A stretch of DNA of 64,000 nt from a virus. Positions 4,324 to 52,121 of the stretch are shown here, in pieces. Location: the IMG/VR virus record IMGVR_UViG_3300002143_000172, positions 32,001 through 96,000 of that record; one strand, written 5' to 3'. The position numbers were made by a program, and so were the translations under genes. The notes under the pieces were generated by a model that worked only from the letters and a program-made list of their open reading frames with translations, was not told where the DNA came from and made no database searches. Numbering within the stretch: position 1 is the stretch's first letter; every line of letters starts with the position of its first letter.

Positions 4324-4397
4324 TGGTGCCCGGAGCCGGACTCGAACTTGTGATAAAGGCTTATCAAGCCTCCGTTATACCGTTTAACTACAGAGCT
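4324..4397 (-). pseudogene. Chimeric tRNA: 5' Ile(GAT) joined to a Leu-type 3' end at the T-loop
   Basis: Acceptor and T stems do not pair; junction at GTTCGA. Confidence 0.7.
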
Positions 4398-4409
4398 GTC
4401 TTACTAACT

Positions 4410-4708
4410 TGGTGCTCCGAGCCGGAATCGAACCGGCACGCCATTACAGCGAGGGATTTTCTTACCACTATAGTTTTCACTACCTTTGCAGTTTGGTGGT
4501 CTGGACTATACCTTCATCATAGCATTACTGCCTTAGATGCTCGCCGTCTAGTCTCTACACGTTCAAAGTAATTTCTTACTAAGCTTCGCTCGGTATTAGC
4601 ATGTTAAAGCCTTCACCGAATTTGACGAGTTCTACTCCCGGCATTTCCACCGGGGCACTCAAATTTTACTCTCAAGTCCCTTGTGTCTACCTATTTCACC
4701 ATCAGAGC
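4410..4708 (-). tRNA. tRNA-Leu(TAA) split by a group I intron (exons 4674-4708 and 4410-4460)
   Basis: Spliced loop GGGA-CTT|AAAA-TCCC; acceptor GCTCTGA/TCGGAGC. Confidence 0.9.
4461..4673 (-). mobile_element. Group I intron, 213 nt, no ORF
   Basis: P/Q/R/S-like motifs AAATTCGGTGAA, AATACCGAGC, GTAGAGACTAGACGG, AAGGTATAGTCC; inserted after a U and ends in G. Confidence 0.9.
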
Positions 4709-10487: not shown

Positions 10488-10579
10488 TGGCGGAAGACGG
10501 AGGAGTCGAACCCCATCCCATTTCTGAGAACCCAGTTTTCAAGGCTGGTCGGCGCACCAACGCACCTGCATCATCTTCC
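10488..10579 (-). tRNA. tRNA-Ser(TGA), 8/4 allo-tRNA/selC-like fold
   Basis: 8-bp acceptor, 6-bp D stem with 4-nt loop, 4-bp T stem, G73, long variable arm. Confidence 0.8.
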
Positions 10580-11178: not shown

Positions 11179-11721
11179 TTAGACGACAAGTAATTCTTGC
11201 CATCTTATAACTTTTGATTCATCATAAACATCACGCTTACCTTTTCTTGCGTTTTCGCTTGCCGGTAAGTACTGTAAATTGTCTTGATGATGTAGTCCTC
11301 CGTTTGCTAACGGAATCCTATGATCAACTTGATATCCTTCCGGAACAAATTGATAAATTTTTCTGATTAAATCTAAATCAGCATTGTCAGGTATAGCATT
11401 TCTTTTCCGTGCTCTGTAAGCATAGACATTTGCTTTATTACCTGCTCTTTTATGTTCTTCAGTCACTCTGCCTCTATGGTCCCAGTAAGCATTTCTAGCT
11501 TCTGAAATTTTAGCAGAATGTTCTTGTGTCCTAGGAGGAAGTTTTACACCCTTTCTGTTCGGCATTTTAGACTTACCAGAAACAATAGCTTTCTTAACAC
11601 CGTTAGCAATTTTTTCTTTAGTATCTGCTGTTCTAATTCTACTGTTAGCACATGCTCTTGAGCAAAATTTTCCAGATCCAAAAGATCCATTGTGTGTAGT
11701 GTTACATTTCAGACATTTCAT
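11179..11721 (-). CDS. HNH homing endonuclease
   Basis: KFCSRACAN, NUMOD-like basic region, VDHRIPL..GGLH...NLQYL..SEN..K. Confidence 0.88.
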   Translation of the reverse strand: MKCLKCNTTHNGSFGSGKFCSRACANSRIRTADTKEKIANGVKKAIVSGKSKMPNRKGVKLPPRTQEHSAKISEARNAYWDHRGRVTEEHKRAGNKANVYAYRARKRNAIPDNADLDLIRKIYQFVPEGYQVDHRIPLANGGLHHQDNLQYLPASENARKGKRDVYDESKVIRWQELLVV

Positions 11722-11886: not shown

Positions 11887-11974
11887 TGGTGAAGAATGAT
11901 GGAATCGAACCACTTGCCGCCACCCCGCTTAACAATGGCCACCGGGTTACAGCCGGCGACGGGGAACATCCTCC
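11887..11974 (-). tRNA. Tyr(GTA) tRNA-like RNA lacking a D arm
   Basis: Acceptor, anticodon arm with loop CTGTAAC, T arm, ACCA; D arm replaced by TTCCCCGT. Confidence 0.65.
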
Positions 11975-12237
11975 AAAACACACTCTAGCAGTTTATCTTT
12001 CTGCCTCTTTGTACTATGTACTCGGAACGAATGTGTGTATTAAAACAAACTGACTAGCTACGCTCCGACACTAACTTCACAGGTTAGCCGTGTGCCAATT
12101 TGCTTTAATACGAACTAATTTTTAGTCCCACAAGAGGGATTCCATCCTAGTCGCCGCCCGTTTAAGACTTGTTTTAAGTGCGTCTTCAGGACCTCGTTTC
12201 CTGGGCATTGCTGCTCTTACTTTCACACTTTGCGATT

Positions 12238-12390
12238 CTAACGACCTCCGCAGAGTATCTCTCGCTTTCTCATAGTTTCATAACTTTCTACAGCTCTTGT
12301 TAACTTGTTCTGAATAAGTTGTTTAACCTGTTCAGGAGTTAGCGTATGCTGTCGAAGCCAATCTACTTCTTTAATCTTTTTCTCTATCAT
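12238..12390 (-). CDS. 50-aa hypothetical protein (MIEKKIKEVDWLRQHTLTPEQVKQLI...)
   Basis: AGGAG SD, clean ORF. Confidence 0.55.
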   Translation of the reverse strand: MIEKKIKEVDWLRQHTLTPEQVKQLIQNKLTRAVESYETMRKREILCGGR

Positions 12391-12763
12391 TTCTCTCCTG
12401 CTCTACAAATTGTTCAAATCTTGTTGCTAGGTCATCATTTGCAGGATCTGTTGGTATGTTGTATGCGTGTATTCTGCGATGGCAGTTAGCACACACTACA
12501 ACACACTTTCTTAGTTCCCTTAAAACAGAACTTATACTTTTTGTTATTTGTCTAATAACCCCTACCTCTTTCTGGCTAGGATCACTATGATGGAAATCTA
12601 AACAAGCAGAGTCGGTCTCGCCGCATCTACTACATTTTAGTGTTCCTTTCCATTCCTGGAAAACATCAAGTAATTCTTTGTATCTGTTTTTTTGATACTC
12701 TAACAACCTTTCTTTGTTCTTTTCGTAAAACTCTTTTCTCTTCTGTTTGTGTTCTTGTTCCAT
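12371..12763 (-). CDS. HNH endonuclease
   Basis: CSRCG...LDFHH.DP..K...KCVVVCANCHR; AGGAG SD and TATAAATA late promoter. Confidence 0.88.
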   Translation of the reverse strand: MEQEHKQKRKEFYEKNKERLLEYQKNRYKELLDVFQEWKGTLKCSRCGETDSACLDFHHSDPSQKEVGVIRQITKSISSVLRELRKCVVVCANCHRRIHAYNIPTDPANDDLATRFEQFVEQERNDREKD

Positions 12764-12829
12764 AAAGTATCTCCTGATACTGTATTTATACAAAAACACA
12801 TTGTTTTTTGTAATATTTTTAAGGACTAC

Positions 12830-12866
12830 AAAAAACGAAACCCCAGGGTTTTTAATCCTGGGGTCC
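12830..12866 (-). terminator. Intrinsic terminator of the attenuator
   Basis: GACCCCAGG-ATTAAAAAC-CCTGGGGTT-TCGTTTTTT. Confidence 0.85.
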
Positions 12867-12890
12867 TTGAAGTTGTTGTGTATTTTTGTG

Positions 12891-13022
12891 TTACACTACA
12901 CGCTCCCGGGACCCCTGGCAAATCTCTGGTGTACGATCATTACTTGATAGTAACCAAGAGGTGGGCATAAAGCCTGCCTGTTTGGCATCTAATCTATAAT
13001 AATGTATCGAACAGTTTTTCAT
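12891..13022 (-). CDS. Putative attenuator leader peptide MKNCSIHYYRLDAKQAGFMPTSWLLSSNDRTPEICQGSRERVV
   Basis: 43 codons, all 20 amino acids, 35 distinct codons; 3' part complementary to the terminator 5' arm. Confidence 0.75.
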   Translation of the reverse strand: MKNCSIHYYRLDAKQAGFMPTSWLLSSNDRTPEICQGSRERVV

Positions 13023-13080
13023 TTGCTTTCTCTTTATTTCCTAAAAATTTACAAACAGCATTATTGCTGCCTATGTGTTA

Positions 13081-13109
13081 ATTATACAGTTATTTAGCAT
13101 CGCTGTCAA
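13081..13109 (-). promoter_or_regulatory. sigma70 promoter (proximal) of the tRNA array, with embedded TAAATA
   Basis: TTGACA-GCGATGCTAAATAACTG-TATAAT. Confidence 0.88.
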
Positions 13110-13170
13110 CCTCTTTTTATATTTTTGACAAAAAAGATTTTTAACAACTCTTCTTCCTAACCATGTGTCT

Positions 13171-13199
13171 ATTGTATATTTATTTAGCATCGCTGTCAA
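13171..13199 (-). promoter_or_regulatory. sigma70 promoter (distal), tandem duplicate
   Basis: TTGACA-17-TACAAT; shares GTTGACAGCGATGCTAAATAA with the proximal promoter. Confidence 0.85.
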
Positions 13200-13234
13200 C
13201 CCCTATATTTGTGGCAAAAATGCCACACTGCGAA

Positions 13235-51497: not shown

Positions 51498-51547
51498 TTA
51501 AAATTTCCTCATTGCAGACTATTTACCGTGTATGTATTACACAGAAA

Positions 51548-51573
51548 AAGAAAGCACCCGAAGGTGCTTTCTT
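51548..51573 (-). terminator. Terminator after tmRNA coding piece
   Basis: AAGAAAGCACC-TTCG-GGTGCTTTCTT. Confidence 0.85.
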
Positions 51574-51574
51574 G

Positions 51575-51916
51575 CTATTTTCGGTTACAAGGTATAACTA
51601 CCTCGTGGAGGTTACGCCGCTAGGCGAACTTCTCCAAAAAATGCGTCGTTTGCATTTATGGTTTTTGCTTGATTTACAGTCATCGCCTACTGTGTTGCCT
51701 CTTTCGCTATCTCACCATGTCGAAACCGGTCGGGCCCATTAGGGAATATATTATCTTGGCTCCTGCTGTTAGGCTATCAACACTCAAGTTCCGCCCTCAT
51801 CATAATCTATGATTAGTTTGGGCTTCAGATTGGATCATAATATACTCTCTGGTGGACCCGAGGGGAATTGAACCCCCGTCCACGATGCCTTCACTACGAA
51901 GGAATTACAACAATTC
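51575..51916 (-). ncRNA. ssrA: Circularly permuted (two-piece) tmRNA; tag ANDAFFGEVRLAA at 51612-51653
   Basis: Acceptor piece ...GGGGGTTCAATTCCCCTCGGGTCCACCA (ends 51850) precedes coding piece GGGCCCGACCGGTTTCGAC (starts 51737); G3:U pair. Confidence 0.9.
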
Positions 51917-51917
51917 T

Positions 51918-52121
51918 TTACTGCGGCTGAATATTAGCCGCTTGCAAACCTTTTTGTCCTTGTACTACATCGAACGATACTGTTTGATTCTCTGTTAGAA
52001 CTTTGAAGCCCGAAGTTTGAATTTCACTGTAGTGGGCAAATAAATCTGCACCACCTTTGTCTGGAGTAATAAACCCAAAACCTTTGGTTTCATTAAACCA
52101 TTTTACTTTACCTGTTGCCAT
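51918..52121 (-). CDS. Cold-shock protein
   Basis: GKVKWFN..KGFGFI, FAHYS. Confidence 0.95.

Follow-up and report, generated by a model that had tools for sequence, protein, structure and literature searches.

A probable tyrosine tRNA without a D arm and with a pseudoknotted core in phage and bacterial tRNA arrays

The tyrosine gap of a phage tRNA array

To our knowledge, textbooks and recent papers present every bacterial tRNA as a cloverleaf, and we know of no natural D-armless tRNAs other than those of mitochondria. A 2020 review of non-canonical tRNAs gives D-armless forms for mitochondria only (PMC7609411). The closest systems described in bacteria and in alpha-proteobacterial phages are the (8/4) allo-tRNAs and tRNASec-like tRNAs (Mukai et al. 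2017; PMC5389517). These comprise Ser, His, Cys, and Sec species, and neither tyrosine nor the absence of a D arm appears in the main text of that paper. A full-text literature search found no description of a D-armless bacterial or phage tRNA or of a pseudoknotted tRNA-Tyr.

The window analyzed here is a stretch of 64,000 nucleotides from a phage contig of IMG/VR (159 kb, ca. 44% complete). Its minus strand carries an array of 30 cloverleaf tRNAs and a permuted tmRNA, at whose upstream end we found an 88-nt gene (11887-11974, read from 11974 to 11887) for a tRNA-Tyr(GUA) with an encoded CCA and no D hairpin, referred to here as the rewired tRNA-Tyr. The 31 cloverleaf tRNAs of the whole contig represent 19 amino acids, and tyrosine is the only one without a cloverleaf tRNA; the rewired gene fills this lone gap in the tRNA set of the phage. 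It had been proposed as the only Tyr anticodon of the window, which holds across the entire 159-kb contig, with the reservation that a cloverleaf tRNA-Tyr may sit in the part of the genome that the contig lacks. No gene for tyrosyl-tRNA synthetase (TyrRS; PF00579) was detected in the 159-kb contig; therefore, charging would fall to the host enzyme.

Standard tools do not recognize the gene. ARAGORN made no call at 11887-11974 in default, -mt, or -ps80 mode, and the Rfam tRNA model (RF00005) gave no match to it, either at its gathering score or at an E value of 10 or less. The sole Rfam match was to tRNA-Sec (RF01852), with 25.8 bits (the gathering threshold is 47 bits) and an alignment that places 6 nt where the model has a 16-nt D arm. 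The minimum free energy fold of the single sequence has a shape unlike a tRNA and an energy no better than that of shuffled sequences (z = 0.02), a value that is uninformative here, since nested folding cannot score a pseudoknot. Rejection by the finders speaks for a decaying tRNA-Tyr pseudogene that has lost its D arm, the alternative that the original prediction had itself named, and one member of the family indicates that dead copies exist: in locus L012 (1144-1232, plus strand) the central rod and the T arm are intact, the acceptor stem is paired at only four of eight positions, and the copy is likely dead.

Several other elements were observed around the gene. The pair formed by tRNA-Tyr and a tRNA-Asn is bracketed by two HNH homing endonuclease genes (11179-11721 and 12371-12799, both on the minus strand); the two ORFs are HNH endonucleases by PHROGs (E values of 5e-8 and 4e-23) and have no Pfam match. 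At the head of the array, ca. 0.9 to 1.2 kb upstream of tRNA-Tyr (12830-13205, minus strand), there are two repeated TTGACA-17-TAtAAT-like promoter sites within a duplicated block of ca. 40 nt, followed by an ORF of 43 codons with tandem Tyr codons (MKNCSIHYYRL...) and then by a terminator-like hairpin (CCCCAGG/CCUGGGG and a U run). These elements are probably what the original prediction called an attenuator; a tyrosine-sensing role for them has not been shown, and one of the HNH endonuclease genes separates them from tRNA-Tyr. Immediately upstream of the gene, some phage relatives (L011, L018, L019, L021, L032, L041, and others) have an 8-bp hairpin, ACACAUUC and GAGUGUGU closed by a tetraloop such as GAAA or UAAA, which ends 3 to 10 nt 5' of G1 and is preceded by a conserved UUUAAUA. 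The same hairpin arms are found in the window at 11977-12040 (minus strand) with a loop of roughly 40 nt, and in 31 out of 100 distinct upstream sequences there is a GUGUG no more than 30 nt from G1. This hairpin may be a promoter, a leader, or a processing element.

The array holds further unusual members. A tRNA-Ser(UGA) missed by ARAGORN (10492-10579, minus strand) belongs to the published (8/4) allo-tRNA type: its acceptor, D, and T stems measure 8, 6, and 4 bp, the D loop is UUGG, the extra arm is long, and the 3' end is G73-CCA; it matches the tRNA-Sec model with 35.4 bits (E value of 3e-5). The anticodon loop of tRNA-Leu(UAA) (4410-4708, minus strand) is interrupted by a 213-nt group I intron (Rfam Intron_gpI, 50.2 bits at 4480-4683), and ARAGORN calls this gene if introns are allowed. 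A tRNA-like sequence at 4327-4396 (minus strand) has a GAU anticodon loop and a poor acceptor stem (RF00005, 27 bits for a threshold of 29), and a stretch resembling it comes after the rewired tRNA-Tyr in the relative L011. The tmRNA (51521-51949, minus strand) is of the permuted, two-piece phage type with the tag ANDAFFGEVRLAA (Rfam beta_tmRNA, 139 bits). We also considered an 8/4 form for the tRNA-His of the window and rejected it, as this gene is an ordinary 7/5 tRNA with G-1 and C73.

Secondary structure and covariation

The sequence and segmentation given in the original prediction are identical to the minus strand from 11974 to 11887. From the 5' end, the acceptor strand GGAGGAUG (8 nt, 11967-11974) pairs with CAUUCUUC (11891-11898), a helix supported by family covariation in which two of the eight pairs are G-U in this gene. 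It is followed by a UU linker (11965-11966) in the place of positions 8 and 9, conserved in at least 90% of an alignment (A1) of 125 distinct homologues; the linker was fixed by the search pattern used for bacteria and free in that used for phages. Next comes CCCCGU (11959-11964), the 5' strand of a long-range helix that substitutes for the D stem. The anticodon arm (11940-11958) has a stem of 6 bp (CGCCGG/CCGGUG) and the loop CUGUAAC, with the anticodon GUA at 11948-11950. Thus, the interval between acceptor and anticodon stems is only 8 nt long (UU plus CCCCGU), and a D hairpin is impossible.

The region between the anticodon and T stems measures 26 nt and makes up a large extra arm. It starts with GCC (11937-11939), the 5' strand of a variable-arm stem whose 3' strand, GGC, is at 11916-11918. 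Within the loop of this arm are an A/U-rich connector, AUUGUUAA (11929-11936), as read from alignment A1; the 3' strand of the long-range helix, GCGGGG (11923-11928), supported by covariation and RNAalifold; and UGG plus C (11919-11922), inferred to stand in for the D-loop G18 and G19 and position 20. Family-wide, the connector is A/U-rich and mostly 6 to 9 nt long by our reading of the alignment, and the anchored parse described below makes it 1 nt longer by counting the base that pairs with the sixth position of the helix. The T arm (11899-11913) has a 4-bp stem (GUGG/CCAU), also paired in the family, and the loop UUCGAUU, and the gene ends with the discriminator A73 and the encoded CCA (11887-11890). 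Its G+C content is 59%.

A covariance model of the family (R1) has the full-length gene as its sole strong match in the window (87.4 bits, E value of 7e-27), with every helix intact, and the gene meets all the features of this model: an 8-bp acceptor stem, UU, a 6-bp anticodon stem preceded without interruption by a 6-nt strand that pairs into the loop of the variable arm, a variable stem that crosses this pairing, and a T stem of 4 bp. Compared with established classes, it has the 7-nt anticodon loop, U33, purine 37, UUCRAnU-type T loop, and 12-bp acceptor/T branch of a canonical cloverleaf, and it fails the finder and Rfam thresholds and lacks the D stem-loop. From the (8/4) allo-tRNA and tRNA-Sec-like class it has the 8/4 branch, the 6-bp anticodon stem, and the long extra arm, and it fails on the long-stem D hairpin with a tetraloop and on the 47-bit score for RF01852. 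It also fails the features of the D-armless mitochondrial type, namely, a short replacement loop, a reduced size, and detection by mitochondrial models.

The sources of the 125 homologues are phage contigs, one cultured Pseudomonas phage, and tRNA arrays of bacteria, mainly Planctomycetota. The pattern for viral contigs imposed nothing but CUGUAA, GGUGG, and the T loop, to which the bacterial pattern added TTCC; since these letters were set by the searches, their invariance is no evidence. In alignment A1, 95.8% of the cells in the named helices are paired, with values from 93 to 99.8% for each of the acceptor, long-range, anticodon, and T helices. The covariation score of the whole structure is 0.684 versus 0.174 for shuffled alignments, was reached by none of 500 shuffles, and falls to 0.126 or less when partners are slid by one to three columns. 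The shuffle statistics were not corrected for relatedness, and related sequences inflate them. Both-side changes occur at all eight pairs of the acceptor stem (98.5% of cells paired), and all six pairs of the anticodon stem covary (97% of cells paired). The first pair of the T stem is G-U in 69 of the 125 sequences, another standard pair in 34, and unpaired in 22.

The long-range helix is paired in 99.2% of cases. Its first five pairs (99.8% paired) include two fixed by the patterns, and the three free ones changed on both sides in 43, 65, and 54 sequences, with five to six pair types each; counting all 6 bp, the four unforced pairs have four to six types each, and there are compensatory changes at every position left free by the patterns. 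Variants such as CCCCG/CGGGG, CCCUA/UAGGG, CCACA/UGUGG, CCAUU/AAUGG, and CCGGC/GCCGG illustrate this exchange, none of 500 shuffles matches it, and slid partners drop to 0.03 to 0.17. The sixth pair (U-G in the window) is kept in 96% of the sequences (CG in 79, UG in 39, GC in 1, and UA in 1); therefore, the helix is 6 bp long and directly adjoins the 6-bp anticodon stem. The CCCCG/CGGGG pairing proposed originally is thus real, and the check suggested for it, covariation in homologues, found it conserved and compensated; it was one pair too short, as the helix is CCCCGU/GCGGGG. Without guidance, RNAalifold recovered helices of 8 and 4 bp along with the 12-bp rod, and 20 of these 24 pairs show compensatory changes.

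The variable stem required a different treatment because MAFFT misaligned its 3' strand (82.6% paired); hence, we used an anchored parse and a permutation control. At least three contiguous base pairs were found in 122 of the 125 sequences, the stem of the extra arm having 3 to 5 bp, and the mean length was 3.45, compared with 2.56 ± 0.07 when the partners were permuted. The second pair of the stem is CG in 69 sequences, UA in 29, and GC in 20, and the 3' strand ends 2 to 3 nt 5' of the T stem in 120 out of 124. The original prediction had drawn this hairpin as GCCA/UGGC, which is the wrong register: relatives with GGC...GCC, GUC...GAC, and GACA...UGUC pair solely in the register of GCC (11939-11937) with GGC (11918-11916). 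With the 3' strand of the long-range helix lying inside this covarying stem, the two pairings cross each other and make the RNA a genuine pseudoknot, which bears out the suggestion that the core is rebuilt through the enlarged variable arm. Both this secondary structure and its conservation are observed.

These data weigh heavily on the pseudogene alternative. The layout recurs in 125 distinct sequences from phages and several bacterial phyla, with every helix compensated, and in the window copy no helix is broken and the score with the family model is the highest. Considering that the long-range pairing is conserved and compensated, the alternative is refuted, and we give decay of the window gene practically no credence.

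Distribution and tyrosine identity

The scan of viral contigs recovered at least 119 loci, and the layout was the same in all but three among the matches listed. In prokaryotes (one genome per species and the stricter pattern) we found 34 loci, most of them in Planctomycetota and the rest in a few Alphaproteobacteria, one Spiribacter, and one Rhodothermales. They include the chromosome of an isolate, Lacipirellula limnantheis I41, and MAG contigs of megabase size. The members of the family in phages and bacteria are G+C-rich and 83 to 93 nt long. A BLAST search of the locus and the gene against 50,697 phage records revealed no close relative, the matches being just tRNA-Asn in Caulobacter phages and an unannotated copy in Pseudomonas phage SCYZ1; the latter is 76% identical, adjoins a tRNA-Pro, and is also missed by ARAGORN.

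The Planctomycetota arrays contain up to 39 genes in 8 kb with a conserved gene order, and the rewired tRNA occupies their Tyr position (loci L131 to L164; for example, L155, 5110-5199, plus strand, in Lacipirellula limnantheis I41). The CCA is encoded in the phage copies and absent from those of Planctomycetota. In Lacipirellula the rewired copy is between Leu(CAA) and Glu(CUC) in an 8-kb locus with 27 tRNA genes called by ARAGORN, and a cloverleaf tRNA-Tyr is found elsewhere in the genome, in the usual Thr-Tyr-Gly-Thr cluster. Horizontal transfer of long tRNA arrays, frequently together with homing endonucleases, has been described (PMC8421152).

The distributions of the rewired and cloverleaf forms are observed to be complementary. 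Of the 90 loci that carry a family member and 10 or more cloverleaf tRNAs, 13 have a cloverleaf tRNA-Tyr, while every other amino acid is represented in 53 to 82. Both forms coexist as separate genes in 14 out of 151 family loci; together with Lacipirellula, this implies that the rewired form is not always the sole tRNA-Tyr.

Regarding identity, the window gene has the complete bacterial tyrosine set, that is, GUA, A73, G1-C72, and a long variable arm with a stem. The anticodon was imposed by the search patterns; A73 (125 out of 125 sequences) and G1-C72 (124 out of 125) were fixed by none of them. Both A73 and G1-C72 are determinants of bacterial tyrosine tRNAs (PMC9976931).

Scans with other anticodons found the rewired fold with Arg anticodons in 14 viral contigs (L173 to L186), corresponding to nine distinct sequences with UCU and one with CCU, all D-armless, pseudoknotted, and with the 8/4 branch. 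No rewired fold with any other G34 anticodon appeared in these scans. They also gave one chance match, to an ordinary tRNA, and the patterns bias which relatives could be recovered. In the Arg relatives the discriminator and the first pair vary, and UGG is followed by A in 9 of the 10 distinct sequences versus 17 of the 125 Tyr members. The main determinant for ArgRS is A20, directly after G18 and G19 in the D loop (PMC9976931), and the A of the Arg relatives fits both a charged tRNA and UGG as a stand-in for the two D-loop G's. The UGG itself was imposed by the search patterns.

Considering these features, the description of the gene as a Tyr tRNA-like RNA with an 8/4 fold and no D hairpin is upheld by the 8-nt interval, the covariation in 125 homologues, and the place in the array, and the gene is probably a functional tyrosine tRNA with a rewired core, its processing, charging, use on the ribosome, and three-dimensional arrangement being inferred. 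Alternatively, it could be a decoy or sponge, a tRNA-like RNA that mimics tRNA-Tyr to absorb a host factor, such as a nuclease that cuts tRNA-Tyr, and is never used by the ribosome. The fold is most abnormal precisely in the variable and D region, and some arrays retain a cloverleaf tRNA-Tyr, as would suit a decoy. However, a decoy has no need to combine an invariant A73, G1-C72, a 12-bp branch, an encoded CCA, and an anticodon loop of exactly 7 nt; the rewired gene substitutes for the cloverleaf tRNA-Tyr in most arrays instead of being added to it; and the Arg relatives change their identity elements together with the anticodon, as charged tRNAs do. A decoy function thus seems improbable.

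Proposed core and comparison with known systems

A functional rewired tRNA could keep the L shape under a different wiring. The acceptor/T branch would retain the usual 12 bp, divided 8/4. CCCCGU, after the UU linker, is predicted to run directly into the 6-bp anticodon stem while pairing with GCGGGG in the variable-arm loop; as no nucleotide separates these six bases from the anticodon stem, the long-range helix has to stack on that stem. The resulting continuous rod of 12 bp would replace the stacked D and anticodon stems, with the strand from the acceptor stem taking the place of the 3' strand of the D stem and that from the variable loop the place of its 5' strand. UGG would then be found at the site of the D loop, and its two G's probably secure the canonical T loop at the elbow. 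In a normal tRNA, U8 is at the elbow-proximal end, and the UU linker would enter there as well. In such a molecule, the host TyrRS would read GUA, A73, G1-C72, and the extra arm, and EF-Tu would bind the 12-bp acceptor/T branch.

The position of UGG in this model is inferred. It is possible, though we consider it unlikely, that the gene is a working tyrosine tRNA with another core, in which UGG and the next base occupy the groove of the long-range helix, like loop 3 of an H-type pseudoknot; the elbow would then not be firmly fixed or would depend on other bases, resembling the flexible mitochondrial tRNAs without a D arm. A loop of 4 to 5 nt is about what is required to span a helix of 6 bp, and the UGG region has a suitable length. 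Furthermore, UGG is usually followed after only 1 to 2 nt by the 3' strand of the variable stem. The 5' strand of this stem is joined to the anticodon stem without a spacer, and UGG is thus left with little slack to reach the T loop. On the other hand, the canonical T loop UUCGAUU normally requires a G-G partner; this loop is maintained, UGG is the sole conserved unpaired GG, and the A that follows it in the Arg relatives suits a D-loop-like role. The arguments from the T loop and UGG are not decisive, since the patterns fixed both, and the groove geometry cannot be excluded.

The defense nucleases of the PtuAB type (Septu, retron-Eco7) cut tRNA-Tyr in the variable loop. As a hypothesis only, the phage tRNA-Tyr would resist PtuAB because the pseudoknot buries this loop. 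A broader speculation, which we regard as rather unlikely, is that the fold is a second, non-cloverleaf design for an L-shaped elongator tRNA, used by phages and by horizontally spread bacterial tRNA arrays, that spread for tRNA-Tyr in particular because it buries the variable loop, escaping PtuAB while remaining chargeable by the host TyrRS. The rewired fold would provide a testable link to the arms race over the cleavage of tRNA-Tyr by PtuAB, and there are cultured carriers of it, Pseudomonas phage SCYZ1 and Lacipirellula limnantheis I41.

If functional, the family would be a widespread exception to the cloverleaf rule in phages and in the long tRNA arrays of bacteria, in which a D helix can form from strands that flank the anticodon arm on both sides. 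The tRNA sets of phages and arrays would be underannotated; therefore, the "missing" Tyr would not be missing. RNase P, CCA-adding enzymes, modification enzymes, and the bacterial EF-Tu normally read the D/T elbow. With a rewired core, RNase P, TyrRS, EF-Tu, and the ribosome would have to accept more core variation than assumed, which would be useful for the design of orthogonal tRNAs.

Among the known systems, the (8/4) allo-tRNAs and tRNA-Sec share the helix lengths of the rewired tRNA-Tyr (the 8/4 branch and 6 bp in both the D-type helix and the anticodon stem), and the allo-tRNAs also share the long extra arm, the location in phage tRNA clusters, and detection by the tRNA-Sec model alone. 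The connectivity is different, however, since allo-tRNAs are cloverleaves whose D hairpin is normal, with a tetraloop on a long stem, whereas the 3' half of the equivalent helix is in the variable arm of the rewired tRNA, forming a pseudoknot. The class II cloverleaf tRNA-Tyr(GUA) resembles it in the anticodon loop, A73, G1-C72, the UU followed by CC after the acceptor stem, the extra arm, the canonical T loop, and the place in tRNA arrays, but its acceptor/T branch is 7/5, its anticodon stem has 5 bp, and it possesses both a D hairpin and a closed variable hairpin. D-armless mitochondrial tRNAs (metazoan mt-tRNA-Ser(AGY) and nematode mt-tRNAs; PMC7609411) also lack a D hairpin between acceptor and anticodon stems; unlike the rewired tRNA, they belong to organelles, are reduced in size and rich in A/U, have a short loop in place of the arm, and possess neither a long extra arm nor a compensating long-range helix.

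Finally, the tRNA-like domain of tmRNA is aminoacylatable and has the shape of a tRNA with a non-cloverleaf connectivity. The same combination is found in the tRNA-like structures of plant viruses (PMC9976931); the likeness to the rewired tRNA is one of fold, as its charging is inferred. Both mimics are parts of larger RNAs and do not decode through an anticodon, and in the valine-type structures the pseudoknot is in the acceptor arm, whereas the rewired tRNA-Tyr is a free-standing array gene of tRNA size with a normal anticodon arm.
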